The position numbers were made by a program, and so were the translations under genes. A model generated the notes under the pieces. The model did not search any database. It had not been told where the DNA came from and saw nothing but the letters and a program-made list of their open reading frames with translations. A stretch of 64,000 bases of DNA from Flaccisagitta enflata (lineage: Eukaryota), in assembly GCA_965153355.1 (NCBI GenBank), contig OZ231126.1, positions 2,728,001 to 2,792,000 on the forward strand, in the 5' to 3' direction. Position 1 is the first letter of the stretch, and the number at the start of each line of letters is the position of its first letter. Shown one piece after another: positions 29,227-63,996 of this stretch.

Positions 29227-30881
29227 TTAGACGTCGGGAAAATATCGAAAAATGGTAAAAACTCTTCAACCACCGGCTTAAATGATGACCAGATGTGTTG
29301 CAATGATATAATAATCATAAAAAGTCCTTAATTTTGAATATCCTATCAACGGAAAAAATAATGCGTCAAGAGCTACAAACCAGAGCAAATTGATAAACTT
29401 TTTAGATAAATCTTTGGACGAATTCTATTGTAACTCTGCAATAGCTTATATTTCTAGGGCAAAAATCTGAATTCTAAAGTGAATCTGACATAGTTTTCGA
29501 CGTAGAATCCAAATCCGGCGTCAAAAATGAGTTTGACTGACGCTAGATGGCGACAAATGACGCCCTTTATAGGCGCGCCACTTCCGGTTATGGTGAAATT
29601 GCTAATTTGGATATAATTCAGCCCAAGCGCATAAGAGAACGTGGTTATCTATACTATATCAGGTGGAACAAACCCAGTGTCACTCACTAAGTCGGCTTTT
29701 TTGGATACATTCTACCCAAGCGACGTCACTACCAGTTGAAAAAAAAACATTTTTGTAATGAAAATTTACAATAATGTAGACTGAAAGATGTATGGCGCAA
29801 CAACAAGTTACGGGGGCTCACGATATCATTAGGAGCGTGTACCCCCCTAAACACACACTTATATGCACATGTTTACACTTTTCGACCGACAGATGGACCG
29901 ACAGACAAAGCCTCTCAAAGTCTCGAGTATGTACCATAAAGCTTTCAACTCTTTGATGAGTAACGCCTTACATCCAGTTTCCGTTATAAAGAAACAAGGC
30001 CGGATACACGGCTACCCAAGTCGCCTGCAGGTGGGCAGGGGCAGTGATGAAATAGACCAGCTGGGCAGTTGGGCGGGAGCTGTAACCCCAAAACCGCTCA
30101 TGAACGCCAAAAAAGCAAAGTGTTACCGACCAACGGACGGACGGACCGACGGACAGAGTGGGTTGTAGAGTCGCGTGCACGCGACTAAAGAAAGAACAAA
30201 TGGATTTTCATGTGTCTTTCTTAAGATTTCTTTTATATTTCATCAGTATTTCAAAATTTCATCAGTATTTCAAATTTTCATGAGTATTTCATTAGATGTG
30301 AATGAATTTAACTTTCAAAATGTTAGTTTAGATATGAAAACGGAATACAAAACACAAACAATCAAAACAGCGCTAACTCCGTATCTTTTTGACCAAACCC
30401 TTTGATGAGTCCTTTTGGGCAGCAGCCCCGAAGGGGTCAATGACCTGTGCTTTCACACATATGGGGAATTTCCTCTCCTTCTCCTTCTCCTCCTCCTCCT
30501 TCTTTTCTGTCCCCCCCCTCAAATCTCAGTTTTGAAGCTCAAATTCCAGTCTTGAGGTCCAAATCCCAGGCGCCCCAAGGCCAAAATCCCAGCCTAGAGG
30601 CCCAAATCCTAGCTTCAAGGCCCAAATCCTTTCCTGGAGGCCTAGATCCCAGCCTTGAGGCCCAAATCTCAGCCTCAAGGTCCAAACCCCAGTCAAGAGG
30701 CCCTAGTCCCAACGTCAAGGCTGAGATTTGGGCCACAACGCTGGGATCTGGGCCTCCAGGCAAGGATTTGAGCCTCGAGGCTGGGATTTGGGCCTCGAGA
30801 CTGAGATTTGGGCCTCGAGACTGGGATTTGGGCCTCGAGACTGGGATTTGGGCCTCAAGACTGGAATTTGAGCTTGAGACA

Positions 30882-36074: not shown

Positions 36075-36738
36075 GGGCAGCGGCCCCGAAGGGGCCGATG
36101 ACCTATGCTTTCACATATGCAGAAATTTTTCCTTCTCCTCCTCCATCTTCTTCGTCCCCCCCCCCCCTTGGAGACCATATTCCAGCTCAGATCCCAGCCT
36201 CGAGGCTCAAAGCCTAGGTTTGAGGCTCAAATCCCAGGCTCAAGGCTCAAATCCCAGGCTCGATGCTCAAATCCCAGGCTCTAGGCTCAAATCCCAGCCT
36301 CGAGGCTCAAATCCCAGCCTCGAGGCTCAAATCCCAGCCTCGAGGCTCAAATCCCAGCCTCGAGGCTCAAATCCCAGCCGCGAGGCTCAAATCCCAGCCT
36401 CTAGGCTCAAATCCCAGCCTCGAGGCTCAAATCCCAGCCTCGAGGCTCAAATTCCAGCCTCGAGGCTAAAATAGGAAAAATCTGGTTTTCGCGATTTTTT
36501 TAATGAAAACAAATGTTGTTACCCCCCTTAAAGTTCACCGATTTGGACAAAGTTTTTACTGAAGATACTTCACATTATGGATTACTTTCATGTAAGTTTC
36601 ATCCAAGTTGGAGCACTTTACGTACCAATAATTGTCTTCGAAAATAAAAAAATTGGGAAAAACTAATTGAAAAATCATCTTTTTGTCTGAGACATTGCCA
36701 TATTATGGCAGGGATGTATGAACCATGGGCCCAGATTC

Positions 36739-37652
36739 CTTTTTGGGCAGCGGCCCCAAAGGGCCGATGTCCTGTAGGACACAGGGGTGAATTTCCTTAC
36801 GTCCGTCCGTACGTACGTACGTTGTCCGTCCGTACGTCCGTCCGTACATCCCCCCCTCCGAAGCTTCTTAAGCCTCTCAGGCCTCAAATCCAGCCTCTCA
36901 GGCCTCAAATCTGGCCTCTCAGGCCTCAAATCTGGCCTCTCAGGCCTCAAATCTAGCCTTTCAGGCCTCAAACTCAGCCTCTTAGGCCTCAAATCCAGCC
37001 TCTCAGGCCTCAAATCTGGCCTCTCAGGCCTCAAATCTGGCCTCTCAGGCCTCAAATCTGGCCTCTCAGGCCTCAAATCCAGCCTTTCAGGCCTCAAATC
37101 CAGCCTCTCAGGCCTCAAATCCAGCCTCTCAGGCCTCAAATCTGGCCTTTCAGGCCTCAAATCTAGCCTTTCAGGCCTCAAATCTAGCCTTTCAGGCCTC
37201 AAACCCAGCCTCTCAGGCCTCAAATCCAGCCTCTCAGGCCTCAAATCTGGCCTCTCAGGCCTCAAATCTGGCCTCTCAGGCCTCAAATCCAGCCTTTCAG
37301 GCCTCAAATCCAGCCTCACAGGCCTCAAATCCCACCTCTCAAGCCTCAAATCCAGCCTCTTGGGCCTCAAATCCAGCCTCTTGGGCCTTAAACCCAGCCT
37401 CTCATGCCTCAAACTCCCATTGAATAACATGGCAAATTGACAAAAAATTGAAAAAAATGCAAAATTCCCAATGAATATCACGGAAAATTACCCCAAATAT
37501 GCCCTCTCAGGACGTATGGAAATTCACCCCTGTGTCCTACAGGACATCGGCCCTTTGGGGCCGCTGCCCTGCTCTCACTCCACTTCTTCAGCTAATCACT
37601 CCAAGCAGGGCATTGGGTACCGCTGACCATGTGCGATCCTTGGATGACTTGT
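36739..37652 (+). mobile_element. HINE-like family B element with a 21-bp ggcctcaaatccagcctctca array
   Basis: ttttgggcagcggcccc start; gggtaccgctgaccatgtgcgatccttggatgacttgtt end. Confidence 0.75.
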
Positions 37653-39645: not shown

Positions 39646-40676
39646 TCAGGTTTCAAAAGGAAACTCAAAGATAAGCATGTGATCAGGGTGCGTGCTCGAC
39701 CATGTATCAACAAACCCTCCGACACAAATCACAGACACGGCAGTTTCATTCCTCACTTCAAAGCACTGATGCTTTTTCAGTCCTCCTCCACTTCCGCTAA
39801 ACTGAGTTGGAAGTGGCGCTTCTTCATTCCATTCAGATTTGACGACGTCGTAAATCGCCGTTCGTTTGGAGATGTATGGATTTCTGCCAGGTTCCCCGCC
39901 AACGAGGAAGAGTTGAGAATGAGAGACTCGAGTGAGGGAATGAAGCCTCAATCCGTCTGGAATTCCCGAGTTTTTGATCTCGATCCACTCCATGCTTTCC
40001 ATGTTAAGCATGAAGAAATCACTGAAATATCCCCACTTGAACCCGCCATGTATGAATATGCGATGATCCAGTTGCGCGGCGGCGAAATGACGGCGAGGCG
40101 ATGGTCCGGCTCCTTTGGTGGTGGGTCGCGTCCAAGTATTCGTGTTTGTGTCAAACTTGAGTAGCTCGCTAGTGTAATCATATGACCCGTCTCCTCTCAC
40201 GGCCCAACCGCCAAAACAATAAAAATGTTTATTGTACGACCAAGCCTTATGCTCATCTCGAGGAGAGGGAATGTCGCCGTTTGGTTGAAGGCGCGAGAAT
40301 TCTCCGTTGGCGGAAAGAGTGGAGATGTCGTTGACACGCTTCCAGTTTCTATCTCTACCTCCGAAGATGTAGATTTTGCCGTTGATGGTTGTAGAAGCGG
40401 CATATGTGTTACCAGGATGAACATCGCCGGTTGCCTGCATCCGTTTCCATCCGCCGTCCGCGTTGCCGCTTTGACTGAGAGTGAAGGAGTAGACGAAGTT
40501 GGTGGGGAGATCGCGCCATCTCCTGTCTTCTTGCCTCTGTCTCCCGCCCCAGAGGAGGAGTTGATCATCGATGACGCCCCCGACGAAATAAACGCCGACT
40601 GGCCAACGGTTGGCGGATGCCCGGATGTCATTTTCAAATGTCGGCGGCGTGGAGATGAGGCGGCGATGGCGGACAT
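39646..40676 (-). CDS. Terminal exon: KLHDC1/KLHDC2-like Kelch beta-propeller
   Basis: Blades LLLWGG, IYIFGG, FYCFGG, IFIHGG, LFLVGG, ICVGG, plus PSPRD/PSPR motifs. ttcag acceptor at 40677 (phase 1). The frame is open upstream of the track's Met at 40440. Confidence 0.9.
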
Positions 40677-40682
40677 CTGAAT

Positions 40683-40755
<73 letters not shown>

Positions 40756-40823
40756 CAGAAAGAAAGCGATAAGATATCAGATAGGCTGACAAACAGACAA
40801 AAAGAGTTGAGAGAGAGAGAGAG

Positions 40824-40916
<93 letters not shown>

Positions 40917-40947
40917 AACAATCACAGACAGACATGTATAGTATAAA

Positions 40948-41013
<66 letters not shown>

Positions 41014-44000
41014 TTGTTTTGGCAAGGGTTGCTTAAAAATTCAGCCATATCTGAATATTTCATTAAAATTCAAAAAAGACAAAATCCATTTCTTTCCTTT
41101 GACTTACCACATGATGCACCACTCCATCCTGGAGGACATTGGCAGGAAAAAGAATTGAATCCATTTGTGCAGGTACCATTGTTTACGCAGGGATTGCTAC
41201 GACATTTGTCCAGATCTGTATCAATTATGGATAAAAGATCATGGCATCATTTTGAGCAATTTAATATGAGTACCATACAACAGTTGATTACTCGTACAAG
41301 TCCATTTCTTTCCTGGATTTACCTTTATCACATAATGTTCCACTCCATCCTTGAGCACATTGGCAGAAAAAAGAGTTTAATCCATCTGTGCAGTTTCCGT
41401 TGTTTTGACAGGGATTACTTTGACATTCATCCAAATCTGTATCATTTACATAAACATGTGAGATCATGACATCGTTTTTGAGCAAGTCAATATGAATATT
41501 GAAAATTGATTATTAGGACAAAATCCATTTCTTTCCTTTGACTTACCCTCAGCACATGATTCACCACTCCATCCTGGAGGACATTGGCAGGAAAAAGAAT
41601 TGAATCCATTTGTGCAGGTACCATTGTTTACGCAGGGATTGCTACGACATTTGTCCAGATCTGTATCAATTATGGATAAAAGATCGTGGCATCATTTTGA
41701 GCAATTTTATATGAGTACCATACAACAGTTGATTACTCGTACAAGTCCATTTCTTTCCTGGATTTACCTTTATCACATAATGTTCCACTCCATCCTTGAG
41801 CACATTGGCAGGAAAAAGAATCAAATCCATTTGTGCAGTTTCCGTTGTTTTGACAGGGATTACTGAGACATTCATCCAAATCTGTATCATTTACATAAAC
41901 ATGTGAGATCATGACATCATTTTTGAGCAAGTCAATATGAATATTGAAAATAAATTGTTAGGACGAAATACATTTCTTTTCTTTGTTTCACCTTCAGCAC
42001 ACGATGTTCCATTCCATCCTGGAGCACATTGACAGGAAAAAGAATTGACTCCATTTGTGCAATTTCCGTTGTTTTGACAGGGATTGCGTTGACATTCATC
42101 CACATCTGCATCATTTATATAAAAACAAGAAATTAATAAATCATTCCTGAGAATGTCAAGATCTAAATCAAATAACGATTGCTAAGTTCATTTCTTTTCT
42201 TTGATTTACCTTCAGCACACAATAATCCACTCCATCCCGGAACACATTGGCAGGAAAAAGAATTGAATCCATTTGTGCAGGTACCATTGTTTACGCATGG
42301 ATTGCTACGACATTTGTCCAAATCTGCATTGTTTATGGATGTAAGATCATGGCATCAATTTGAGCAATTTAACATGAGTATCAAACAACATTTGATAAGG
42401 CTCATACAAAGTTCATTTATTTTCTTTGATTCACCTTCATTACATGATGTGCCACTCCATCCTGGAGGACATTGGCAGGAAAAAGAATTGAATCCATTTT
42501 TGCAGGTACCATTGTTTAGGCAGGGGTTGCTACGGCACTTGTCAAGATCTGTATCATTTATGGATATAAGATCATGGCATCATTTTGAGCAATTTAACAG
42601 GAGCATCGAATAACAATGGATAGAACTTATGAATAAAAAGTTCATTTCTTTTCTTGATTTACCTTTATCACATAGTGTTCCACTCCATCCCGGAGCACAT
42701 CGGCAAGAAAAAGAACTAAATCCATCCGTGCAAATTCCGTTGTTTTGACAGGGATTTCTTCGGCAATCATCCGTAACTGGATTATAAGGAGTGAAAATTT
42801 CGCCAAGATTTAAACCAGGCTAGTTACGCGGTTGATCAGTGACGTGTCATGGGCTCATAGCTCATGGCCAGTATTTCAATGAATAAACGAAGAAATAATG
42901 AACTGATGGTCGGTAGGGGGGGGTTAAAGGCCTAAAATGGTTTTGAGTACTTATGCTTCCGCATACAGAAAAATGCCAACCTAAAAATCCTTATTTCTAG
43001 TTTTACTTATAATCCCTTACTTTTATTTCTATCTTTTTGGGTTTTTTTTTTTCTTTTTTACCTTTATCTTTTCATTTTCATTTTCATTTCTTTTTCTATT
43101 TCTTTATTTCTATTTTTGTTTCCATTTCTATTTTTTTTTTTTTATTCTTATCTTCTTTTTCATTTTCATTTTCATTTTTGGGCAGCGGCATTCACATATC
43201 TGGGGAATTTTTTCCTCCTCCTCCTCCTCCACCTTCGTCCACCTGTCCATCTGCCCCCCTCCATGGACGGAGGTGATGGAGGAGGAGGAGAAAGAGGAGA
43301 AAATTCTTCATATTTGTTAAAGCATAGGGCATCCCTCCCTCAACTTTAATCACAACCTACTTAGGCAGGGCACAGGTACTGCTGACCAGCAAATGCTTTT
43401 GCAACTCTCATTTTTTCCGTCTCTGTCTTCATTTTCATTTTCATTTTCATTTTCATTTTCATTTTCATTTTCATTTTCATTTTCATTTTCATTTTCATTC
43501 TCTTTTTTCCTGTTTAGTCGCAATCATGCTTTATTCATCTTTCCCCCCTCTGTCTGTCCGTCTATTGGTAGGTCCGTCCATAATCAGTAAGTAGGAAAGT
43601 GTAAAAATGTGCATTTCATTTGTTCCAACTCCCCTCGGCCCTCAGCAGCAATAATGCAACCCATTGTCACTTATTTTTCTTCCATTCATCATCTTTTTCT
43701 TTTTCTTGTTTTTTCATTTCTTTTTGTCATTCTTTTTGCTTTTCTTTATATTATTCTTTTCATTTTCGTTTTTCTTTTGTTTTTAGTTGCGGACACGCAA
43801 CTCTATAAGAGGCTTTGTCCGTCTGTCCGTTGGTCCATCCGATGGTCCGTTCGTGGTCATCGAATTGAAAAGTAGGAAAACGAGCGTTTTCGATACTTTC
43901 TGGGCAGCGGCTCCAGAGGGCCGATGTCCTGTAGGAACCGAGGGTGGATTTCCAGACGTCCGTCCATCCATCCATCCCTCCGTCCGTCCGCCCCCCCCCC

Positions 44001-47000
44001 CCCCCGCTTGACCATCTGGGCCCTACATCAGCTCTCCCGGGCCTGATTTTGGCCCTCCAAGCTCTTGAACTAGCCCTTCCAGGCCTAAACTTAGCCTTCC
44101 AGGCCACAATTTAAGCCTCCAGGCCCTAATTTAGCCCCCCAGACTTCAAATCAGCCCTCAAGGCCACAAAAATCCCTACAGACCTCAAATCAGCCGTCCA
44201 ACTCTCAAATCCGCCCTTCAGGCCCATATCCTGCTCTCCAGGCCTCAAATATGCCCTTTAGGCTTCAAGCCTGCCCCCCCCCCCACCTCAAGGCCTTTTC
44301 AGGCAAAAAATCTGCCCTCCAGACCTCATATCCATCTTCAATAACCTCCATCAGTCTTCTTAGGCCTGAGATACTCCCCTTGCAGGACGTCGGGAAATTC
44401 CCCCCTGTGTCCTACAGGACATGGGCCCTTTGGGTCCACTGCCCTTCTCTCACTCCACTACTTCCCTTGATCACTGCAAGCAGGGCAATCGTTACCGCTG
44501 ACCATGTACGATCCTTGGATGACTAGTTATGTATGTTTGAGTGTTGGGGGTGGGTTGGGGTGCGGATGGGGGTTGGATGCCCCTGCCCACCCGTCCGCAA
44601 CAATATTGTGACCCCGCGTCACTTGTTTTTCCTTTTTTCTCTACCTTGGGCCCAAATATTAACCTGAAGGCCCAAATCATTGTCTCCCTAATTCAGCGGA
44701 ATTGCTATAAAACGGTTGCCAAATTACCGCTCCTATCCAGTCTACATCCGAGCAGTACAATGCTAAGAAATTTGCATGGCTCACAATTGATAGTTATTAA
44801 AGGGTCCTCTGAAATTAATGATGATATGTATAGCACATTGTACTTACTTAGAGGTTGTAACATTCCCATGAGGATACACACAACAATGATGCCAAGCGCC
44901 GAGAGAGAAACAATCTTCAAACGTCGATATACCGGGTTTGTTTGCTGAGAGCCATCACCATCACTCATTTTTGGAAGGCATGGGAGACAACCGCATTCTT
45001 GCGACAAACATTTAAAGATAGTATTTCTCCGTGGGGTTTTAGGTTCCTGACTTCCTGCCTCATAAATCATCATGCGTGAGGATTTAGATGATTGCCCCAA
45101 AACATCATCTTTCAAATCATCAAGTTGGTACCAATCATCCGTTTCTGATTCATGTGCTAAGCGGGGTGAATAAGCTTTTGCTTTAGACAATCCTGTGGCT
45201 TCTTTGTCTTGAAAGAAATTCGATGAATCAAGAAAGAATTTGACGATTGTTTTGTTATCATGTCTCCAGACTTGAGTGATGTCTTTCTGGAACCTAGTAC
45301 CATTTGATCTGTTAATTAGCAGTACAATGGGACTAATGATAATAGTCCTTTGAAGTGCTAAAGACAGAGCCAATGACTCAGGAGGAGTTGGCCAAATGTT
45401 TAAGGTGGCACTTTTTCCAAGACACTGTTTCTCTAAGGATGAAACCTTTTCCAAAGAGACGGACATGGATACATCATCAGAGAGATTTTGCAAGTGCTGC
45501 CTATCTATGGAGGATTTATCATGGTACAAGATATTGATCCTGTCAGATCCATGAACGTGGTACATCTCTCTTGTACTTAACACTAGTTCTGATGTTTTAG
45601 CAAAGCGATTGACTAAATCGCAATGTATGAACTGTATGGGGAGAAAGCCAAAGATTGGAACTGGTTTTAATGCGGTGTTGACTATGCAGGTCAGAGAGGT
45701 CATGGCTCGAGATATGGCGAGCATGAGGTGGAAAGGATTAGCAAAGCATGAGGCCAAGTCGACAATTAAGACCAAGCATGGATATTGGCAACCATTTATT
45801 TCGATAGGATCTCCAAAATCTACGAGGCAATTTGGAGTTTTGTTTGCGATTCTCATTTGAAGGTCATCTGTGAATGTGTCACTCATTATGCAGGATACCA
45901 TGATTCTGCTTTTCCCTCTCGACATTTCTGTCAGTTCCCTCTCACAAACTGTCAAGAAAGCATTTCGCTCACTTGATTCGTCCTTTACAACTTCAATTCT
46001 TACTTTATCTCCATGGTTTTCAATTATTGACTGGGGAGACAAGATTCTATTGACTTCATAACCAGGAGCTGCTTCACCAAAAGACCGTAGAAAATCAGTG
46101 ACTTGCTTAGAGCAGCGTAGGTTTCCTGTCAGTGTAGCTGGTGTTAGATTGCCTCTCAGGAAATGGAAGGAAAATTTCACTTGTGATTGCTCAGCTCGAA
46201 GAGAAGCCAGTGAAGTGTGGCGGTGATATGGTGAAATGTGAATATGCTCATCCCAAAGAATCAAATCTGGCCAGGCTTGGTCCTTGTGAAATTCATTCTC
46301 ATCTCCTATCCGAAGTTGGTCAGATGGACTGAATTGATTATTCATCCATTCTCTCAGTTTCACATGACCAGACGGTATTACTATGAACAAATTTCCATCA
46401 GATTTGATCTTTAAAAACCGTTTAGCAATTTCGATAAGAAGTAATGTTTTCCCACTTCCTGGGCAGCCATTAACCAGCAGTTGCACAGTTTTGTTTTGAT
46501 AAAGTGCTTGGGTTACTTCATCCAGGATCTTTTTTTGCTGCTTTGTCCACACAATAACTCCCTTCTGACCCAGTTCTTGCGTGGACAAACGCTCATGGAA
46601 GGGCAAAAGATTGATGCTCGCCATATTCTGAAGAATGTACAACTTGGCAGCAAATTGACGAAATGCTTGCAGCTGTTTTGCTGATGATGAATGCATTATG
46701 GGTATCTTGATGGCTTCATGAAGCATCTTAAGATCCTCAGTTTGTAATGCATCTCTGAGAATAACCCTTTGTAAAACCCCCTGAGATTTGTGTTTTGGTT
46801 TTTCAATTTTGGGAACCTCTGCTCCAAGAATGATGTGGATTAATTTGAAGCTGCACAATCTTACTGCTGTCGGATGGATACTGCTGGCAAGTTTCATCTT
46901 GTTTTGCAGTTGTATCTTCGTAACTTGTTTGCTGGGATGTTCACTGATGGAAATCACAAAGATTCCCACTGGTTCAAAAACCACAACCATGTCGAATATC

Positions 47001-48013
47001 TGACTCCAAATATTGGAGATTAATTCAACCCATTCCCTGGAGATAGGTGAACTATCCTCTGACATGGAAACATTTTTAAGACCATCATGAAATGCATCCG
47101 GTGAATGATTGGTCATCAGCGCAATTCTGTGTTGGTTTTTTCTGTCATTCTTGACAAAAGTGTTGAGATGCGTCTTGACAGCATCAAAGATCTTTTGTTT
47201 GGCGCACAAGAATGCATAATCCTTATCCTCCTCACTTCTAGCACTGGTCACAAGAGGAATAGCAATGGGGCACTGAATATCTGGCAAAACTTGCAATTTT
47301 CCTTTGGTCCAATCAGGATAGAAAGCTTCTATAGTGGACACTACAGCTGGATCACTGAGAGATTTGCTTTCCTCAGATCCAGGTATCCTCAGTAATAGAT
47401 CATGTGATTTATTACCCTGAGCGAGCATCCAGTCACCAACAAAATGTTGGCAATTTTTGCTGATCAGATCGTAATTCTCTTGATCCAAGTTAAGCACTTT
47501 GACAATAGCCTCAACATCAGCCAGTGTGTTGACCAAACATGTCTCAAAACCTTCAGTGCCACACTCCTTGGTGGCTCCACGCTCCTGGCCAGAGACGTAG
47601 CACTTTAGCACCTCCACGCCTGATGATGACAGGGCATTGTTGATGTTAAAATCATCATCATTGTCATCCGAGTATTGGCAAATGAGCCCTTGTGTATCTC
47701 TCTCAAGTGACAGGACAGATGTATCGCCATTTTTCCAATCCATAAGTCTTAAGACAATAAACTCGTGGAAGAGGCCATGGTTTTCTGTGTGTGGGGCATT
47801 CCAGATTAGCCCACCAATGCGTCCAAGTGCGTGTAAGGGGGATCTGATTCGGTGCCAGGCTATGATTTTTTTGTTTCTGACCATAGTTTCAATCTTCCAC
47901 CGCCAAAAACGTTCATTAGGGGTAGAAAATTCGCTGCATGTCGAAAATTCATCACGATTGTGTTTATCGCGGTAGTAATGGCGGTGGTAAGTGTAGATTC
48001 GAAAACTAGCCAT
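39646..48013 (-). CDS. Predicted ~1700-aa type II membrane protein: permuted papain-like peptidase + NERD-like + Schlafen-like SF1 helicase + TM + 8 EGF + Kelch propeller. Exons: 48013-44848, 42776-42663, 42548-42435, 42323-42210, 42105-41992, 41881-41768, 41660-41547, 41436-41323, 41215-41108, 40676-39646
   Basis: All nine introns are GT-AG and phase 1. Exon sum is 5103 nt = 1701 codons including the stop. The junction between exon 1 and the first EGF exon is inferred from a GTAAGT donor right after the TM helix. Confidence 0.7.
41108..42776 (-). CDS. Eight tandem Notch-like (calcium-binding-type) EGF exons
   Basis: Seven 114-nt exons and one 108-nt exon, all phase 1-1, e.g. [38 protein letters not shown]. 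Confidence 0.92.
43781..44628 (+). mobile_element. HINE with a nested family B element, inside intron 1 of the chimeric gene
   Basis: ttttagttgcggacacgcaact start; inner gggcagcggctcc...gatgactagtt; end ccgtccgcaac...cacttgtt. Confidence 0.7.
44848..48013 (-). CDS. Exon 1: peptidase-like + NERD-like + SF1 helicase + TM
   Basis: HEFIVL (H83)...SLER...[11 protein letters not shown] (C188); [19 protein letters not shown]; Walker A GCPGSGKT (aa 516); Walker B ILWDE; LTGNLRC; INGCQY; LAISRA; TM segment [23 protein letters not shown]. Confidence 0.88.
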
Positions 48014-48272
48014 TTTGGCCTATTTGGATACCTTATATTGAATTTTTTTCACTCTGTCCGTGGTAGATGATTAGATGCGGAAAACTTGGAAATTGTCAGC
48101 GTTGAAAACATTCTTTTCTTTTCAAAACAAAAATCGTTTTCGGGAATTTTCTTAGGAACTGACGGTATAAAAAAAAGTTAGAAGAACTTGGAAAGGAAGT
48201 AAACGTGTCGGGCAAGTTTTGAAAATGATCGATAAACTTTGAAACAAAGAATCGAAATTGACTGATCATCAT

Positions 48273-48407
<135 letters not shown>

Positions 48408-49037
48408 AAACCTTATTCGATACCCTCCTTAGAACATTATGTCTAGCCAAGCATTGTTTTGTCTTCCGCTTCAAAGTATCGTTGAGAATGGTTTTTCATA
48501 AGCCTACAGAATCGCACTGACGTGAGATGGAGTTAACGAGTGGAATCAATGACCATCTTCCCCGTAGATTCATGGCACTACCTATTCCAAAGCAACTGAA
48601 CGACTGTATTGGGGTGGGTGGGCAAGGTCAGCTACTTGGCGGGTGGACAGGGTCAGCGATGAAGCGGCCAGGAGAGACAGGACCAAAGCCACGTATGATC
48701 AACGCACCAACTTACAAATTGTGTCCTATAGTGCACGCAACTTGGGAGAATTTCTCGTGGAAATAAGACCAGATACTTGGCTAGCCCAGTCGGGTGAAGA
48801 TGCCTAGGGTCAGTGACAGTGAGGTAGGAGGCTTCTAAAGCATTTTTGCTGTGGCAGCAATGCCGACTCAGCTCAGAGGTGACAAGGGTGAAGGACGGGT
48901 AAGCGGAAGGACATACGGATGAATGGATGGACCGACGAACGGACAGGCGGACAGTTAGATGAAAATCGGACAGAAGAACGGCAGTGACCATTGGCCAGGT
49001 TCAAAATTGTCCCACAATCCTTTCGCGAGCAATCCAG

Positions 49038-49099
<62 letters not shown>

Positions 49100-49101
49100 G
49101 C

Positions 49102-49183
<82 letters not shown>

Positions 49184-49371
49184 GCTTCAGTCTGTCCGTC
49201 GATCAGTCGGTCGGTAACACTTTTATAAAGACCTTTGATCGGTCACATCCATTTGTTCGACCATCCATTCATTCATTCATTCATTCATTCATTCATTCAT
49301 TCATTCATTCATTCATTCATTCATTCATTCATTCATTCATTCAGGCATTCAGGCATTCAGGCATTAATTCA

Positions 49372-49722
49372 TAGGCCTGTATATAGTTGCGTATTTCCCC
49401 CCCCCCCTCCCCCAGCAGGGGAGAATAAAGTCAAAGGATTTGGAAATGGGGAAGGAAATAAAAGGGTGGAAAAATGAAAAGATGAAAAATATAGAAGATT
49501 TTACCCTTTTGGCAGTACTAAAATGTAATATTTAGGTACACCAACACTATTTTATACTATTCAATTCAATATATTACTATAAAAGGAGTATATGGGGAAG
49601 AAAATCAAATGTAATTCGACCCCGCGGGGAAGAAAATCAAATGTAATTCGACCCCGCGGGGAAGAAAATCAAAGGACCAGGGGGGGGGGGAAGAAATCAA
49701 AGGTCGTGCAACTACACCCCTG
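49372..49722. mobile_element. hAT MITE (related to 4921-5248, opposite orientation)
   Basis: Perfect 8-bp TSD ttaattca; termini taggcctgtatatagttg / caactacacccctg. Confidence 0.85.
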
Positions 49723-49915
49723 TTAATTCATTCATCAGCGCGTCAGAAAACAGGTCTGTAGGAGCCTAAGAGGTCATATGAGATCAATGGTTGCTTGGTC
49801 GGTTGGTCAGTCATTTGGTCACGTTAACATTTAAATCGCGAAATCCGGGGATGTTTGAGCGAAAAAGCAGCACAAATATGTTTCACTATTTTTTTTCTCA
49901 TTTAATCAATCATTC

Positions 49916-50500
<585 letters not shown>

Positions 50501-50777
50501 TGTGTTAACCTTAGTGCATTACTGAGGGTGTGTTTCTGGTGACGAAAACAATCGCGAGTACCCCTCGTTAATTGCATTTTCAGTTCGAACATGATTGTTA
50601 ACTGTCATTAAGAAGTGGTATACCCCAGGAACCTGTTTTAATCTACCAAATGCTCAAACTGAATGTTGAATGTAAAAGAAATAAAGACCATTGTTCACTG
50701 TTCAGTGTTGCGGAAACTCTTGTGAAAATTGATGCGCAAGTACAAGTTTACAACAGAAACAACTACTATTAAGATAC

Positions 50778-52720
50778 CAAGGATGTCACGAACCTATCGA
50801 CTGGTCGATTAATCGGGCCGATTTTTTGCGTTTCAGAATAATTTTCCTGAGTCACAAAACTCATATGTATTGGGTTGATTTTTTGTCTTTTTTTCTCTGG
50901 CTAGCATAGATTCGATTTGACGATAAAACTGATTTATATCTTGCATTATAAGTAAGAAAAAGCTCAAAAATTGAATTCTTTTAATATGGAATATTAACAA
51001 TTCAAATCTAAATGTTAGTAAAATGCATTGCATAAGTAGAAGATCGTAGAAAATCGCGGAACCCGGGCGATTGGATGGCAGTGTGGGACAAACACGCCCC
51101 AAAACAAAAGCTTGTTTACACCTACCTAAGATTGTAACGCACAAAGAGCAACTTTTTGCTTTTACAGTACGATGGGAGCAAAGACGACCTAGACAGCACG
51201 CCACGGGAGAAACCTCTGCAGGCTGTATTAAATACTCGGTTGTAACGGCCACTGGTTTTGAGATGAGGCAGACTTCCTCTATCTTTTCCCATTCGAAATA
51301 AAAGAAATGCCCTTTAAAATTTGTTGAAAATCAACAATATATAGCTCTTTAACAATGTTTTTTGCCATGAATATTTTCACATAAAAATTTTGTAGGTTTC
51401 GAGTAGAGATTCGCATTCCTGGTAAAATTTCCAGTCGTTTGATAGGTCGCAATATATATTTCTGCTGTGAAATAAAAAAGTCCAATTTTCTTACAACACA
51501 AGATAACAACATTACACTTATGACAACCAACAGTAATGTAGGACAATATTGAACTTTTTTGTCTCTTAATAAAAACATATAGTGCGACCTATCAAATGAA
51601 TGGAAATTCTACAAGGGATATGATTCTTTTACAAAGAATTAAGATGGGCTCTCGCCATTCAACTTATCTGGCAAAATGTATCAGATATGACACATTTTGT
51701 TGATTTAAAAAAAATTTTGAAGGGGAATATTTTTCTCTTCAGTACCAAGTGATAAAATAGACCTCCCTGAAGCCCAAACCACTCGCCGTCATGACTGAGC
51801 ATTTTTCTTGACCTATGAAAGCCTCCCCCGTAGCGTGACAGGAGAATAGATTATATATATCTTAATTTTAATTAATTCTTTTAAAAAATGTGATCTATGC
51901 TAATTAAAAGTTGAATTTTGTTTGAACATATTTGGTTCTCTTATTTTCAAACTTGTGACTCGATTTCATCAAAACTTCATTTTTCAATGTTTTAACCTAG
52001 CTCATCAGACTAGGCAGAAAATATCATATATGAAAAAGAAATCAACTCAATTGAACCATTTTTTAAGCTTTGTTAAAATGCTGATTTACATTAGTGTTCC
52101 ATTTAAAAAATAACTCTATAAACCTGTAAAAATAGTCTAATTGAACTTGTTTTTTAAAATCATATGAAATATTTAACCCTATTTGATAAACTAAGTTAGA
52201 ATGTTGAAAAATGAAGTCCTAATGAAATGAAGTCGCAAGTTGGAAAATGAAATAGATTTATATATTCAAGCAATAAAGCAACCTTTGATAAATATAGAAA
52301 TCAATTCTATTATAAATCAATGGAATTAGAACACTTATAATCTATCCTCCGATCTAGGTTGTCTTTGCTCCCATGGTACTGTAGATGGAAGATATCGCGA
52401 TCTTGTCTCATCCAAAAATTCCCCCATTTTGGGAAACAGCCTTTGAGTATGTGCTTGAAGTGATGGGAAATCTTGCAAAATGAATGAAAAACGCAGTTGT
52501 CTCTCCTGATTAGTTTGTGCTTATTGGCTCTTTTTTCTATTTTCATAACATTAGCTTACAAAACATTTTGCTGTGACCGAGTAATATTTTTACTTGGTAA
52601 AATATTTAACTGGCAAAACAATCAACCTATGGTCGATTTTAAGTCGATTTTTTGGGGGTGTTCGACCATGATTCGTTCGACCTGGTCGATTTTTTAAATC
52701 AATAGTTCGTGAAACTTCTG
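50778..52720. mobile_element. hAT-type non-autonomous element
   Basis: Termini caaggatgtcacgaac / gttcgtgaaacttctg; TSD taagatac / aaagatac (7 of 8); subterminal ggtcgatt repeats. Confidence 0.7.
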
Positions 52721-52884
52721 AAAGATACAATACAAAAGGAAAAAAAAGATAGAAATGATGCTACAAACGTGATGTAGTTCAATTTTTTAACTGTAAAAAT
52801 GTCGATATTTTCATTCTGATATGAAAACAATCAGTTATTGATGAAGCAATGATTTGGAAAGAAAAGAGTTGAGAAGTGGTAACT

Positions 52885-53478
52885 TACTATCTTGGAAAAA
52901 ATAAAAGTCCAAGCTGGATAAAGGAAAGATTTGATTTCGAATTTGATAAAAGAATGATCATTTTTACTAGCCTACTATTTAAAATAACCTTTTTAGAGTT
53001 TAGAAATTGCTTGTATCTGTAAGGGCATGCCTTAGTAAAGAGTATAATGCCATTTTGAAGTACATTCCCTCCACACAATTTGTTTGCAATTTCTGAGAAT
53101 CAACATTCTGACTCTTTTTGATCTAGAACCCAAACAAAAAAAGCTAGGAGTCTCTGCTTGGGGGCAATAAATAGCCCTGATCAAGAGTTTCAAAATGGTC
53201 ACCAATTTTCCTTTCAAATTTTGCATATCAAAGCGACACTGTAACAAAACGTCATGCATTCATATTCTATCCAAGTTTTTTGTCTATTTCCTGAAATCAA
53301 CATGTTTACTTATTTTGATGTAAAATCTAAACAAACAAAGCATTGAGTCTCAGCTTGGCGCCATTTGCTAGCCCTGTTTATTGGCTTCATTTTGGTCACC
53401 AATTTTCATATCAAACCATGTATATCAAAGCTGTAATATGATTAAACGTCCTGGACTTTTATTTTTTCCTAGATAGTA
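52885..53478. mobile_element. TIR element (tactatct...agatagta family) directly downstream of the KDM2-like stop codon
   Basis: tactatcttggaaaaaataaaagtcca / tggactttttattttttcctagatagta. Confidence 0.7.
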
Positions 53479-53489
53479 CAGACAATCAA

Positions 53490-54501
53490 TCAAGAAAAAT
53501 AATACTTGTGGCTTCCTACACTGTCTTGTTGAAACCTCCAAGATGCCAATTCTTTCTCTTTTACAAATTCATGAAATTTGATCGAAGTGACGCGAAAACA
53601 AAAGGACAAATCGAGATGGCGCAACCGCGTCAATTCGACGAGCAACTCCAAAACACGATTGTCCAAGTTGGAATTGCCCGCCAACACGAGACTCTGGAGC
53701 GTATGTCGAAGTGGAGACGACTTCTTCTCTTCCTCATCCTCTTCTTCATCCTCATCTTCCTCATCCTCCTCTTCAACTCCTTCGTCATCAACATCGTCAT
53801 CTGCAGCACTTCGACCGTCGACGAGGGCTTGGATCCCCGCGTTAGTGATCCTCGTGCAGAAGGACACGTCGAGATGCTGCAACATGTTGACAAAATGCGG
53901 CAAAGCCCTCAGTGAGATGTCGGAAATGTTGGTCCGGATGAGAATCAAAGACTTCAGTTGACGGAATCTTGAGTTGACGATTTTAGGATGCAGATGAGGA
54001 TGCGGAAATCCCGTCGAGTCGACGAAAGCGTTGGCGTGACCCGCGTCATAATGATGATTATGATAGGAATGAGAAGCGCGGACGAGGCGTTGGAGGCATC
54101 TGTCATCGAAGCCGTCAACGTCGGTGAGATCGAGATGTTGGAGGAATCGAAGACCTCCTTGGGGAGAAGCGATCATGGCTTCGACGACGACCAAAGGCAA
54201 GCCTCTGAGCTTCAATGCAACCAATCGAGGAATTCGAGGCAGCAGCCAACCAAATTGAAGAGGGTTTAAGATGGACCAGGAAAGATCCAAAGCTTTGGGC
54301 TGTCTACGGACGAGATTCCGGAAATGGGCGCCAACCAACTTCCGGTTGGAAAGGTCGCAAAGACGCCACTTGGAAGCGTCGTGACGCAGGATGGCGGAAT
54401 GCCAATCCTTGGAGACGGTCAAACAGTTGGTCAAGTCGCGGCGAGGTAGATGCCGGAAGATGAAGGGGAGGAGGGCGTGAAGGTTGTTGTTTTTGTTGTT
54501 T

Positions 54502-54587
<86 letters not shown>

Positions 54588-57500
54588 GATTTGGAGATTG
54601 ATGATAGTTTGGTGATTTTCAGTTTCAATGTTCCTCTGGTGATCCATGTTATTTCCTGCTGACTCAATATCCACACTTTCCTGTTCTTCCTCTTCCTTTT
54701 CTTCCTCCTCTGGTTCCCAAGGCCTCACTGGTATCTTCTCAACCACTCCTCGAAGCCTTCTCAACTCTTCCGTCGGAATCTGTCGGTGCTTCACAACGAC
54801 TTCAGCATCTCCACCAACAACCTCGTCATCAACATCCTCCTCCTCTTCCTCCTCCTCTTCATCATCATCATCCTCGTCCATGTCTTCGTCCGCCGACGAC
54901 TCTTCAGCCGCATCCTCGACAATTTCGACAACTTCGACGACACCTTCCAGTCGACGAGCTACTGCATCCTCTTCATTGTCGATCTGGACCACCGCTTTGT
55001 CCTCATCATCCTCGTCGACATTTTCCCCGATTTTCATGTCTCCAAATCTTTTGGCGATTTCTTTTTGCGCCATTTTTATCCATTTTCCTCTTTGAATTTT
55101 TGTCATCATTTTAAGTTTTTGCTTCAAATATTTCTTAGCTTTGTTTGGATTTGCGAGGAAGTCCTCTTGTTCGTTGTTGTCGTTTTGCCGTAAATCATGA
55201 TGCTGTTGATGATGTTGATGTTGATGTCGATGATGTCGTCGATGATTTAGTTGATTTTGCGCGATTGAATGATGACTGTCTCCGTCTGCTATCATCTTTC
55301 GATCCATTTCATTGTCGCTTTTTCTCATCGTGAATTCATCTTCATCATCCTCGATTTCGTTATCCACGCCGTTATCGAGGTTACAAGCGTCATCGGCGTC
55401 GTCATTGAAAGAATCGTTGTCGTCGGCGTCCTTGCCTCCGGCGTCATCTCTTTCCAGCGGCGCCCTTTTCCACGTCATCGGCGTCATAATAGGCGCCACT
55501 TCCGTCGGACTCAAAGCGGAAAACGCGTTGGTTTCAAATGATTTCCTTCTTTTACCACCGGCGCTACTTTTAGAACCGGCGGCTGTTCTCCCGGCGCCGA
55601 AACCTGCATGAATCCGACCGGCGTCAACATCCTCCTCTTCCTCTTCCTCATCACTCGGATCGCTGAATTGAAAGTCGAATTCGTTGCTTCTTTTTACGGC
55701 GCCTTTTCCATCGGCGCTCACCGCGTATTTCTGCTTCTTTCTCTTTACGGCGCTGGAAGTCAATTTTGCTGGTGCAACTGTCGCGGCGCTCTTTTTACCG
55801 GCGCTTTTATTGTCGACGTTGCTTGATGCGGCGGCGTTCTTTTCTATTGTTATCTTGTTTTCTTTGGTCATGTTTTTGCTTTGTTTCTTGACAACCTTTT
55901 TGATATTTTTGGTCGGAGAATCTGATTTTGGTTTTGTTTGAGGATGGGTGTCGGATACAGACGACGATAGTGTTGAAGTGAAAGAGGATGCTGTCGACGA
56001 TAAGGTTGAAGTGAAAGAGGATGCAGACGACGATAATGTGGAAGTAACGGAGGATGCTGTCGACGATAGTGTGAAAGTAAAGGAGGATGCAGTCGTAGAT
56101 GGAGTGGAAATGCCTTCGGAGGCTGATGGTCTACTAACTTCTTCATAAGTGGATGTTCTTTTATCGGATAAATTCGGTGATGATTTTAGCACGTTGATTG
56201 AATCAGAATTTCCTTTTTTATCGCAGTCCAAGCAAATCCAATTACGAGAAACATCAATGTTCTTCATTCCAATCTTGTTGCTGTCGTTGATGTTGCTGTC
56301 ATTGATGTTGCTGTCGTTGATGCTGTTGTTGTCGCGTTTGTCACTTTCGTTTTGTATGACGTTGTCATCGCCGCCATTGATGTCATTGCTGCTGTTTCCG
56401 CTTCTATCGTTGCTGCTGCTGATGTCATTGCTGTCGCTGCTATTTTTGCCGCTGGCCTTGTTACCGTAAAGACATCGTAAAACTTGTTCCAGGGACATCT
56501 CAAACTTTTCCATGATGCAGATGGCGTGCATCCATTGTTTACACTTGCAGCATTGCAGCAGCCGCCATTTGCTTTCTGGAGATATTGCTGCAGCTGCAGT
56601 AGACGCATCTGCAACCGATCCTTGTTCAGTTTCCTCCTTAGCCTCCGCCACTCCTCCTCCTCCTCCTCCAGACTCTTCTTGCTTCTTCTTCAGCTCCATC
56701 TCAACCTCTTTCGTTGCTCCTCCACTCATCAATGTTGTATTTTTCCTCCATAATTTTGAGTAGAAACAAATCTTGCATCGCTTTGTGGTCAACTGTTTGG
56801 TCGGCTGATTGGTAAACGGATTGGTCAGCTGATTAGTTAATTGGTTGGTCAAAAGATTGGTCAACTGATTGGTCGTGGTAGGATTTGTCACAATGTGAGT
56901 GGTCGTCATTGGATTTGATGTAGCCTGTTTGGTTGAGGCGTCTGTAATGATGCTGCTTCCGCCGCCACCGCAAACTCTGCCACCACCTCCACCGACTCCA
57001 TTGGCCGTAAAAATGCCGCCATTCTGCAGTATTGGCGCCGAGCAGCGCCTCATGACGCATGGGCGTTTCAATTTCCCGGAACCGCCAAACTTTTTCATGT
57101 CTTTGCAATAAGGACATTGACCACAATCTGGACGCGTGCAGGCGGAACATTTCTCGCACCGAAGTTTTCTGTGACGTCGCATTTTGATGACCGGCGGCGG
57201 CCCCGGTAGTTGAAGTGGCGCCCCCGATGGTTGAAGTGGCGCCCCTGGTAGTTGAAGTGGCGTCCCCTGTTGTGATGGTGATGGAGCTACGACGCCGGTG
57301 AGAGGAAAGCAACCGGAGGTGGAGATGGAGCCGGTGATCAAATTAGGGTTGGCGCCTGGATTTGAGAGCACGCCGGTTTCACTAACTGATGAGAACTGCT
57401 GAAAGATGTGATTAGAAAGCGCTGGAGCCGATGGCACTGTAAGCGGTTTCAAAGACTCCATTGAAGAGTCTTGTTTAGGCGCCGCAACCGCTGGTGCCAA

Positions 57501-58397
57501 GGTTTGCGATGCCAAAGTCGATGGTGCCATGGCTATCAAGCCGGGGAAAACGGCGTTGTTTTGTATGCCATTGACGACGTTGGGTAAACCACCTGCACCA
57601 CTTATTAGATATTGAGATGAGCCCAACTGAATGAGGCGCATCGGCTGAGCTATCTGAGCTAATGGGTTTGTATTGTCAGAATGTGGCAACTGTAAAGTGG
57701 TGCCGCCATTAGAAGGTGGCATATTGATGTTGGAATTAGGAGGTGGTGCCAGTAAAAGGGTGCCATTAGAAGCCGTCGTGGACAGATTAGTGTTGGAAGG
57801 GGCCACCAAAAAGATGCCATTGGAACTTATACCATTTGATGGTATCATCGGGAAAGTGTTGTTTGATGAAGCATTTGTTGTCATAGCACTTGATGTTATC
57901 GTTGGTGTTGTTGTTGGTGTTGGTGTTGTTGCTGTTGTTGTTGTTTGTGAAGGAGGCGTCATGAACAGGATTGCATTTGAGGATGCGGAAGAAAGAATGC
58001 CGTTAGAGGCCAAAGTTGTTTGAGATTTGTTGGAAGGTGCCATTAAGATGAAGTTTGAAGATGGCATTGACAAGTTACTATTTACCAATGAGTTGTTGCA
58101 ATTTGAGGATGTAGTTTCATTGAGGCTATTCAAAGATGCCATCAAGTCAATTTCGTTTGCAGATGACGTTGAGTTTTTGCCATCTAAAGAAGCAGATGAA
58201 TTGGAGCCACGCGTAGATGTTGTGGAGATTGTTCCATTTGAAGATATTGATAAAATCTTATTTGTATTGTAAATATCGTTGCCGTTGGTTGCCATTGATG
58301 GCTGTTGATCTCCAAAGATAGCTTTGTTATTGTTGTTGAGGAACGAGGATGAGCCAATGTTGCTTTCATCACATTTCAATGTTGTTGTTTGCTCCAT
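53490..58397 (-). CDS. KDM2/FBXL19: KDM2/FBXL19-family protein (CXXC - PHD - F-box - LRR), no JmjC domain, single 4.9-kb ORF
   Basis: [44 protein letters not shown]; split PHD CKIC...[15 protein letters not shown]...WICLDC; F-box [35 protein letters not shown] and later LRRs typical of the KDM2 C-terminus. Confidence 0.9.
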
Positions 58398-61900: not shown

Positions 61901-62562
61901 ATTTCCTCAATTTCTTCATTTAATAATTGCATTTCTTTTTCGATTTCGCTTTTGTTTGTACGGGTCTCTTGTTTCCCGTAGTAAGTGCCAATCAAAATGG
62001 GTGAAAGGCCTTTCCGATGTATGCTTACCCAGATGATTTCTATGTTGCGTGTGGAAATGATTGTAGTGGCATTAGATTTTAAGTCATTTCGGACATATAT
62101 TCCCACACCGCCACCTGTCCCTTTCTTTCTTATCCTGCTGTAAAACTCATAACCATCGATTTTTCCTCCAGAGTTGTTCCTTAGCTGTGTCTCTGTGAGG
62201 AGAAAAAGATGTGGTTGGTTTTCATCCAGGATTTCGATAAGGCTTGTTTTCTTTCCTTTAAGGCCTCGGATGTTTGAATACATGACCTTAATTTGATTGG
62301 AAAATGTGCCTTTTTTTCCGTTTTTGTGTTTACGGCTGTGGCCAGACTGATTGCCTATAATAGTGGGCATATCTGGTTTATTGTCGGTGTTTATGGAAGT
62401 GACACTTTTTTCTCTGGTGCATGTTATCGTGGTAGGTTCTGGCTCATTTGTGAGGGAGGTTGTTTCTGGTTTGTTAATTGTGTGTGTTGGTAAATGGTTG
62501 TAATCTTCATTATGGGTATTTATGAGTAAATTGGGATAGGTTGTTGTGTCATTGTGGACCAT
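58972..62562 (-). CDS. LINE ORF2: APE endonuclease + reverse transcriptase + CCHC
   Basis: MYSNIRG, LTET, MDGNAK, IDF, TDHN (endonuclease); NYRGI, FYDVQKAYD, KQG, WVDD, YKYLG (RT); CNEC...EEH...C. No stops over 1196 aa. Confidence 0.95.
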   Translation of the reverse strand: MVHNDTTTYPNLLINTHNEDYNHLPTHTINKPETTSLTNEPEPTTITCTREKSVTSINTDNKPDMPTIIGNQSGHSRKHKNGKKGTFSNQIKVMYSNIRGLKGKKTSLIEILDENQPHLFLLTETQLRNNSGGKIDGYEFYSRIRKKGTGGGVGIYVRNDLKSNATTIISTRNIEIIWVSIHRKGLSPILIGTYYGKQETRTNKSEIEKEMQLLNEEIEEMKREGEVLLAMDGNAKIGLLGEPISRNGKLLLQLVENTNLKLVNNTPKCKGRITRVNTKNPDEHSAIDFLLASENAEKWISEMLIDEDGLYKLKGINETDHNTICIDINITNIEKIKVMKHVGWNINAPSEKWEDFKNELDKRRNKATQIITDKTQPLQKRYNLWLREIENAARETIGKTTFKEGKFGKTSEEIKKLRQMKKDLKKEIQIETDKEKRDLLILDHKKIQETTREEIVREKTEQIKKKLENIINDTTGKTFWGLKRQMTRDPTLESMAVKDRNGQRQFSPEGIKEATADYYQDLYKDKEYPFHPYHIEVEEKIRNYTEDDQHEDTRYNQPPTIEEITKIINLKKNGKSTPDIKNEMLKRPGLAMIYFLMPLIETIWEDETIPKEWITGYITSLWKGKNDRENLANYRGITTCSAIGTIFDTIIDNRIESVVPFTQAQGGGRKNASTFDHLFLMRAMFDIAIKQKRASFFTFYDVQKAYDNASNSDMLALLWDRGLRGKSWRILNNLNSNLTAIMKTRFGPTREIPMEIGGKQGSRLTGRMFAKLMDSLAEELEVTGEGFMLDADFIIAVLLWVDDVVSCVDGIENQEKMLENIHEFALKHKLCWGQEKCKVMRIGRHTEESKQWMIGDMPIEETTSYKYLGDLLTNDGKNAKNLESRKNNAFATTTSINCFAANEILKRIETDVLLRLHEKVTVSGLLTNAESWTLNRGEKAELEKIEVQSLKHLFDLPAHTPTPAIIFTLGTLFTDHRVEIKRLNYLHRILVREEDHWTKKAFNTLDSMNIGWSKSIKDTLTEYHLPTDYETIKSMTQRQWGNLVKEKVEAMNRRRLYDDCHKTVDGVQVVKTKTSSIPNNLLSHAYTRKPCDEILQCTKQETKTIIIARFGMLDCGRNFKGSNDETCNECSEVDDEEHRLNHCIKYRSFNYYDHEQKIPFKNIFSTDVDILRDIIPRIQKVWDTNCAHGTMKKEQC

Positions 62563-62574
62563 TTGGATTTCATC

Positions 62575-63996
<1,422 letters not shown>

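Follow-up and report, generated by a model that had tools for sequence, protein, structure and literature searches.

A candidate fusion gene joining a predicted Schlafen-type nuclease-helicase to EGF and Kelch exons in Flaccisagitta enflata

A stretch of 64,000 nucleotides (nt) from the genome of Flaccisagitta enflata (contig OZ231126.1; hereafter the window) carries on its minus strand, between positions 39646 and 48013, a long open reading frame (ORF) with a predicted helicase of the Schlafen type, followed downstream by a series of short exons encoding EGF modules and by an exon encoding a Kelch beta-propeller. The best, still unproven, model of this feature, to which we assign about an even chance, is a single ten-exon fusion gene running from 48013 to 39646, in which the helicase ORF is spliced, just after its only transmembrane helix, to the EGF-Kelch exons. 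If true, the fusion would be new: such an architecture was not found in full-text searches of the literature, where the only related papers deal with teneurins, and we know of no nuclease-helicase of the Schlafen/Nhi/AbiO kind that is wired across a membrane to an adhesion-type ectodomain. An earlier, sequence-only reading of the same DNA had proposed a gene of this type; the locus proves to be real and unusual, and the earlier interpretation is partly supported.

The ten-exon gene model

The ORF extends over 44705..48013 of the minus strand (1102 codons, with the start at 48013 and the stop at 44705) and its N-terminus, which is also that of exon 1, lines up in alignment with the N-termini of its relatives. 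Five codons past the only strongly hydrophobic segment of the ORF lies the donor sequence CTA A/GTAAGT (the slash marks the exon end), whose last exon base is 44848 and whose phase is 1; this GTAAGT is the sole GTRAGT in the sense strand of the 3309-nt ORF. On the other side of the proposed intron, about 60% of which consists of repeats, either tandem or dispersed (the latter also present at other places in the window), the acceptor at 42776 is a CAG after a pyrimidine-rich stretch (...TAATCCAG) and opens the first EGF exon, likewise in phase 1. The ORF, the helix, the donor (44848/44847) and the acceptor were all recovered exactly where the sequence-only reading had placed them.

The eight EGF exons (seven of 114 nt and a last one of 108 nt) are separated by introns of 104-114 nt, each with an AG acceptor, a GT donor and phase 1-1, and retain 48 of 48 cysteines. 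The Pfam EGF domain (PF00008) scored above its cut-off in all five of the exons that were scanned, out of the eight that exist, while the propeller of exon 10 matched PF24681 with an E value of 3e-43, in agreement with the EGF and Kelch identities proposed earlier. Joined in silico, the ten exons give 5103 nt, that is 1700 codons and a stop, with no internal stop and with 18 of 18 splice dinucleotides intact, as expected from the product of about 1700 amino acids (aa) that had been predicted. The coordinates of all parts are collected in Table 1.

The first EGF exon opens with a good acceptor and must therefore be preceded by an exon ending in phase 1. A second requirement comes from the relatives of the propeller. 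Five close Kelch relatives (P0080-P0084) share 39-62% identity with the propeller of exon 10, the homology starting about 5 residues past the acceptor at 40676; in the two that reach further upstream, a leader is followed by a Cys, the leader being clearly signal-peptide-like in P0081 and weak in P0084. With such leaders the propeller family is judged to be secretory, so that the EGF-Kelch part needs a signal or an anchor. The region 42777-53489 (-), up to the next gene on the same strand, was scanned for first exons combining an ATG start, a hydrophobic segment and a phase-1 donor. With a donor score of at least 7/9, four candidates were obtained, and the sole hydrophobic one was the transmembrane segment of the ORF itself, read from the ATG at 44968. 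Relaxing the donor to at least 5/9 adds, outside the ORF, only 43311-43233 and 51033-50856 (5/9). The former, whose hydrophobic core counts eight residues and whose cleavage region is poor, overlaps a dispersed repeat (43265-43333, with copies at 36097-36157 and 30440-30502). No convincing separate start exon for the EGF-Kelch part thus emerged from the scanned region, in line with what the sequence-only reading had noticed. From these elements we infer that the splice 44848 to 42776 is used. By post hoc arithmetic, about 1.6 GTRAGT sites are expected in 3.3 kb, and the odds of finding one in the correct phase within about 30 nt past the only transmembrane helix are about 0.5%, an estimate that was also made post hoc.

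The membrane helix and the C-terminal extension

In a 19-residue Kyte-Doolittle scan the helix (residues 1034-1052) reaches 2.71, the highest value of the protein, and the next-best segments, at 2.04 and 1.97, both lie inside folded domains of the structural models. The linker that precedes it contains a CGCLPC cluster at 1007-1012, an internal Met1016 and the basic RRLK at 1030-1033, and the 15 residues in front of the helix carry a net charge of +2, compared with 0 beyond it. Both motifs and the N-in/C-out charge bias had been put forward in the sequence-only reading, and hold. One internal helix, positive charge on its N-terminal side and an N-terminus that aligns with those of soluble relatives together point to a predicted type II single-pass membrane protein. 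The helix is tied to the helicase ORF by the 85 stop-free codons that separate the KFF at aa 925, where members of the family normally end, from Met1016. Codon usage has no discriminating power here, as 25-45% of non-coding windows equal the linker, the helix and the tail under a stop-corrected null. The linker has no Pfam match; at aa ~960-970 (45000-45130) an acidic stretch with W-Y-Q-L may resemble a motif of the LC3-interacting-region type.

Domains of the predicted cytoplasmic part

The assignment that is best founded is that of the helicase. The AlphaFold model of aa 440-940, which like that of aa 1-480 was built on alignments of the ORF relatives, has a pLDDT (predicted local distance difference test) of 82.9, and its best Foldseek match in the PDB is human SLFN11 (7zel_A, E 1.9e-10), with SLFN14 next (down to 4e-9) and nsp13, IGHMBP2, Upf1 and Dna2 among the further matches. 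The characteristic motifs are present: a Walker A GSGKT at 519, DE at 588-589, GCQYP at 741 and SRAMTSL at 768. PADLOC profiles of the anti-phage proteins AbiO (3e-9) and Nhi (4e-8) matched aa 490-616; the profiles are covered in part, the match spanning only the first 115-125 or so residues of the helicase, and all three family members that were tested give it. For aa ~485-795 the well-supported prediction is accordingly a Schlafen-type helicase of the SF1B group, which agrees with the Schlafen-like helicase of the sequence-only reading. Sequence profiles see less of it than structure does. In Pfam only ResIII exceeds its cut-off (23.4 bits vs 22.5), SLFN-g3_helicase (PF09848) stays at 13.4 bits, under a cut-off of 24, the NCBIfam scan of the ORF returned P-loop noise only, and PDB sequence searches with family profiles gave P-loop-level matches only (best E 0.005-0.009). 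The Schlafen core (AlbA_2) has no Pfam match in the ORF at E<=1 nor in 8 relatives at E<=0.1, and no NERD match is listed in the Pfam scan of the ORF. A language-model atlas places the ORF near Schlafen helicase/GTPase-like and NERD+helicase clusters of bacteria and molluscs (0.86-0.87), which we take as a lead only.

Upstream of the helicase, the model of aa 1-480 (pLDDT 77.8) has no Foldseek match at E<=0.001. When aa 260-438 were compared by VIA-align, the best match was McrC (6hz4_M, Z 8.4), followed by SgrAI, Can2, Bse634I, Hjc and NucC, and the linkers of SLFN11 (Z 6.1) and SLFN12 (Z 5.8) also appeared, on a scale where Z values below 8 are common. The structural comparison thus names a restriction-endonuclease-like fold in a region (aa 260-470) that the sequence-only reading had left unnamed. 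The acidic residues 341 and 347 of this domain are each kept in 14 of 16 sequences, and a catalytic lysine was not identified in the conservation analysis. Given this fold in front of the helicase, the cytoplasmic core looks like a predicted nuclease-helicase of the Nhi/AbiO/Schlafen kind.

The N-terminal domain is, with moderate support, predicted to be a papain-like Cys/His domain, as had been suggested from the letters. The call is based on three fold matches of the same clan, on sub-threshold Pfam matches on one motif, and on conservation. The motif is NCQHF at 187-191, with the His preceding the Cys in the order of the chain; C188 and N187 are each conserved in 24/24 sequences and H83 in 19/19. 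Peptidase_C97 (PF05903) matched at E 0.011 (16 bits, under a cut-off of 29.2) and LRAT (PF04970) at E 0.2 (12.4 bits, under a cut-off of 24.3), while a PDB profile search gave 4q95 at E 0.36. By VIA-align, aa 46-202 resemble TseH (Z 6.6), CLN5 (Z 5.8) and DeSI (2wp7, Z 5.5), three papain-like Cys hydrolases of the NlpC/P60-PPPDE kind, with values all within the range below 8 that is common for this score.

Relatives of the two halves

A HMMER scan of 1.84 billion representatives at E<=1e-3 returned 63 relatives of the ORF, 8 of them at E<=1e-30; all 20 that were examined are ENA records without a name, and their contigs measure 0.85-5.7 kb. A word-indexed protein search with the ORF scored 0 of 6826 candidates. 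The ORF defines an unnamed family that combines a papain-like domain, a restriction-endonuclease fold and a Schlafen-type helicase, and that has no Pfam family of its own.

The small alpha/beta domain behind the helicase (aa ~800-927) is present in the relatives P0004, P0005 and P0011 and absent from P0001, P0003 and P0006, and the extension of aa 928-1033 was found in no relative of the ORF. P0001 (925 aa) carries instead a different extension of 94 residues, without sequence similarity to that of the ORF and without a transmembrane helix, with a proline-rich stretch and a terminal CaaX-like CCIIA; this end suggests that P0001 may be lipid-anchored. The CaaX-like end would imply that C-terminal membrane attachment arose in the family by a second route, a point that counts for the fusion model. 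Abrupt divergence of the tails after a shared core is seen in P0006 vs P0069/P0070, in P0071 and in P0007 vs P0074, a hint of possible alternative 3' ends in the family that has no direct bearing on the locus. As a side observation, P0011 (1315 aa) is extended at its N-terminus by about 390 residues that include Cys-rich stretches and a UBA-like domain (E 2e-9), which hints at a possible link of the family to ubiquitin-type signalling.

One gene or two

Several observations weigh against a single fused gene. None of the 63 relatives of the ORF, the longest of which has 1315 aa, has a C-terminal transmembrane helix, an EGF module or a Kelch propeller, and the full-length ones mostly end 7-25 aa past the KFF/DFF. 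The EGF Pfam domain is likewise absent from the close Kelch relatives, and a search for Kelch among longer proteins gave two distant matches and no EGF-Kelch relative. The frame stays open for 47 codons beyond the donor, for which the chance is estimated at about 0.1; phase compatibility taken alone is a 1-in-3 event; and the locus was itself chosen post hoc among many windows. In the recently duplicated EGF units the exon pairs are 94% identical and the introns 98% and 91%, so that the exons show no better conservation than the introns. Finally, in a sample of one RNA run of the same study (12,162,974 records, about 6% of the run) no read fell on the ten exons, a result that neither supports nor refutes the fusion, since the run may not contain the unique sequence of this organism; the 11 reads that could be placed all lie on intron repeats (43122-44413), to which they are 95-99% alike. 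The absence of AATAAA/ATTAAA within 1170 nt past the ORF stop, and within about 1045 nt past the Kelch stop, is uninformative.

A rival reading has two genes, in which the helicase ORF is read through to 44705 as a C-terminally anchored protein and a separate gene encodes a secreted EGF-Kelch protein. We consider this a serious possibility, although a minority one. The relatives of the ORF occur as proteins in their own right, of 819-1315 aa, as does the Kelch relative P0081, a secreted protein of 396 aa, and the codons past the donor are open. Moreover, in the human PLAAT proteins an LRAT domain is followed by a putative C-terminal transmembrane domain (PMC9338259); since LRAT/PLAAT enzymes can be anchored in this way, an anchor-only protein produced by read-through is a sensible rival. 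The tail it would use occurs once in the window. A leader exon for the second gene could be the phase-1 candidate at 43311-43233, but this is weak in its donor (6/9), its short core and its poor cleavage region, lies within a repeat, and is of a kind that arises about once per 3-4 kb of non-ORF sequence. Furthermore, some 50 residues past a helix are, by a rule of thumb, long for a tail anchor, and with two genes the perfect, correctly phased donor is left as a coincidence.

It is rather improbable, in our estimation, that the locus yields several products, namely the long fusion, a tail-anchored form made by read-through and/or a short EGF-Kelch protein of type II beginning at ATG 44968; in one variant, the fusion may be young, a helicase gene having become continuous with the first exon of an anchored EGF-Kelch gene that is older. 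This explanation draws on the fact that the ATG at 44968, the helix and the donor make up the top-scoring stand-alone first exon of the scan, with a cytoplasmic stub of 18 residues, on the separate occurrence of relatives of each half, and on the abruptly diverging tails among the ORF relatives, which suggest alternative 3' ends; against it, an internal promoter would have to be assumed within a coding exon, and the sampled RNA run contained no exon reads. A silent or decaying locus, born of chance juxtaposition and without a functional product, is very improbable: the lack of reads on the ten exons in one RNA run, the destruction of a ninth EGF exon by a microsatellite and the EGF duplicates without excess exon conservation speak for it, but the 1102-codon ORF and the 342-codon Kelch exon are free of stops, none of the 48 EGF cysteines and none of the 18 splice dinucleotides has been lost, the catalytic-type residues H83 and C188 and the Walker A/B motifs are kept, and one sampled RNA library cannot show silence.

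Proposed product and its meaning

On the fusion model, the ten exons would encode a single-pass type II membrane protein of 1700 aa. Its cytoplasmic part (aa 1-1033) would comprise the papain-like hydrolase or acyltransferase, the restriction-endonuclease fold, the helicase, the alpha/beta domain and the acidic linker with its cysteine cluster; the helix (aa 1034-1055) would serve as signal anchor and tether the nuclease-helicase module to the membrane; and after it, splicing of the donor at 44848 to 42776 would add the eight EGF modules and the Kelch propeller, placed on the extracellular or lumenal side, possibly for binding or clustering.

The cytoplasmic core is likened to enzymes directed against foreign nucleic acid (Schlafen, Nhi/AbiO), and the papain-like domain to those whose targets at membranes are lipids, or else peptide or isopeptide bonds. 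By analogy with these, the conservative reading is that the protein may be tethered to membranes near sites of entry or replication. A more ambitious proposal, which we regard as doubtful, is that the EGF-Kelch head might bind a microbial, viral or self ligand, cluster, and so activate the nuclease-helicase and the papain-like hydrolase; signalling from ectodomain to effector is here purely inferred, and from architecture only.

In animals and bacteria, the nuclease-helicase modules of Schlafen, Nhi and AbiO proteins serve in defence as soluble enzymes. If the splice is true, domain shuffling would have yielded a new membrane-tethered, possibly ligand-controlled effector directed at nucleic acids. 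If the receptor-effector reading also holds, a single polypeptide would link recognition at the surface to an immune effector directed at nucleic acids, the outcome of a fusion between two gene families that are otherwise separate. Without the fusion, the ORF family would still be an unnamed one, in which two members suggest apparently independent C-terminal membrane attachment.

Other features of the locus and the window

A ninth EGF exon, of which a remnant was read from the sequence, is skipped in the model, having apparently been truncated by a (GA)n microsatellite growing inside the exon (40685-41008). Within 41108-41881 (-), a unit of two EGF exons has been duplicated in tandem very recently. 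Most differences between the duplicated exons alter amino acids and every cysteine is kept, a pattern that may reflect diversifying change, the numbers being small.

Related minisatellite arrays with units of 20-21 nt lie at 37000-37413 and 44072-44250, and belong to a dispersed repeat family, other copies of which are transcribed (reads 95-99% alike). Neither the helicase ORF nor the EGF-Kelch part occurs a second time in the window. With its microsatellites and classic phase 1-1 EGF exons, the window has the appearance of nuclear DNA of an animal, and it also holds a LINE-like (long interspersed nuclear element) ORF at 58972-62562 (-), with endonuclease/exonuclease/phosphatase and reverse-transcriptase domains, preceded by an ORF of 473 codons without a Pfam match (62575-63996, -) that may be ORF1. 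At 53490-58397 (-), a single ORF of 1635 codons encodes an F-box and a CXXC zinc finger (E 2e-11) and matches a leucine-rich repeat weakly; this domain set resembles that of KDM2/FBXL19-type proteins, and a JmjC domain was not detected in the domain scan.

Table 1. Coordinates of the parts of the proposed gene and of the elements that bear on it (positions in the window; domain names are predictions)
Feature	Position	Strand	Remarks
Exon 1	44848..48013	-	aa 1-1055 and first base of codon 1056; ORF, donor adjoining
Papain-like Cys/His domain, NlpC/P60-LRAT-PPPDE kind	47399..47878	-	aa ~46-205
Restriction-endonuclease-like (PD-(D/E)xK-type) fold	46694..47236	-	aa ~260-440
SF1 helicase/NTPase, Schlafen/Nhi type	45629..46561	-	aa ~485-795
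Small alpha/beta domain ending in KFF (aa 925)	45233..45616	-	aa ~800-927; from secondary structure of the model
Linker, acidic/Ser-rich	44915..45232	-	aa 928-1033
Single transmembrane helix	44849..44914	-	aa 1034-1055
Splice donor GTAAGT	44842..44847	-	phase 1
Read-through tail	44705..44847	-	47 codons and stop; translated only without use of the donor
Proposed intron 1	42777..44847	-	2071 nt
Weak rival first exon	43311-43233	-	26 codons; donor AAG/GTGGAG, phase 1, 6/9
EGF exons, first four of eight	42776-42663, 42548-42435, 42323-42210, 42105-41992	-	
EGF exons, last four of eight	41881-41768, 41660-41547, 41436-41323, 41215-41108	-	
Ninth EGF exon, remnant	41010..41058	-	skipped in the model; read from the sequence
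Exon 10, Kelch beta-propeller and stop (39646-39648)	39646..40676	-	342 aa, P0077; opens in phase 1

Comparison with known systems

The Schlafens of group III (SLFN5/11/13/14) resemble the ORF in the structure of their SF1 helicase and in the order of a nuclease-type module followed by the helicase. They differ in that the ORF has no detected Schlafen core and a helicase Pfam score under the cut-off, and in that Schlafens have neither a papain-like N-terminal domain nor a transmembrane helix nor an ectodomain, the last of these being possible in the protein of the ORF. The bacterial anti-phage proteins Nhi and AbiO share the co-linear arrangement of a restriction-endonuclease-type domain and an SF1 helicase, whereas the ORF is eukaryotic, has extra domains and a membrane anchor, matches their profiles in part and has no NERD match listed.

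For the N-terminal domain, the likeness to the LRAT/PLAAT, PPPDE/DeSI and NlpC/P60 enzymes lies in the His-then-Cys order, in the NCxHF-type motif and in the fold matches, and PLAATs also have a putative C-terminal transmembrane domain (PMC9338259). On the side of the differences, the Pfam matches of the domain in the ORF are all sub-threshold, and it stands about 850 residues away from the anchor.

With attractin and MEGF8 the locus has in common EGF modules and a Kelch propeller on the outside, the ectodomain being a predicted one here, and exon 10 matches Beta-prop_ATRN-LZTR1 (PF24981) with 103.5 bits vs a cut-off of 50. Attractin and MEGF8 are of type I: they have a signal peptide, contain CUB, PSI and lectin domains, and extend into the cytoplasm by short tails.

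The teneurins offer a parallel in topology. EGF_Teneurin (PF23106) exceeded its cut-off in three of the five EGF exons scanned, while the teneurin intracellular domain and the YD shell have no Pfam match in the ORF or in the last exon. The teneurin propeller is of the NHL type vs Kelch here, the locus has no toxin-like C-terminus, and its cytoplasmic part is, by prediction, enzymatic. Beyond the parallels named here, the locus has no defining domain in common with the teneurins or with attractin and MEGF8. In teneurins, which are of type II, the N-terminal domain is intracellular, a single helix follows, and eight EGF repeats and a beta-propeller lie outside the cell, and the family was born by gene fusion (PMC6428715); the topology proposed for the Flaccisagitta enflata protein runs parallel to theirs, and would thus have a precedent.

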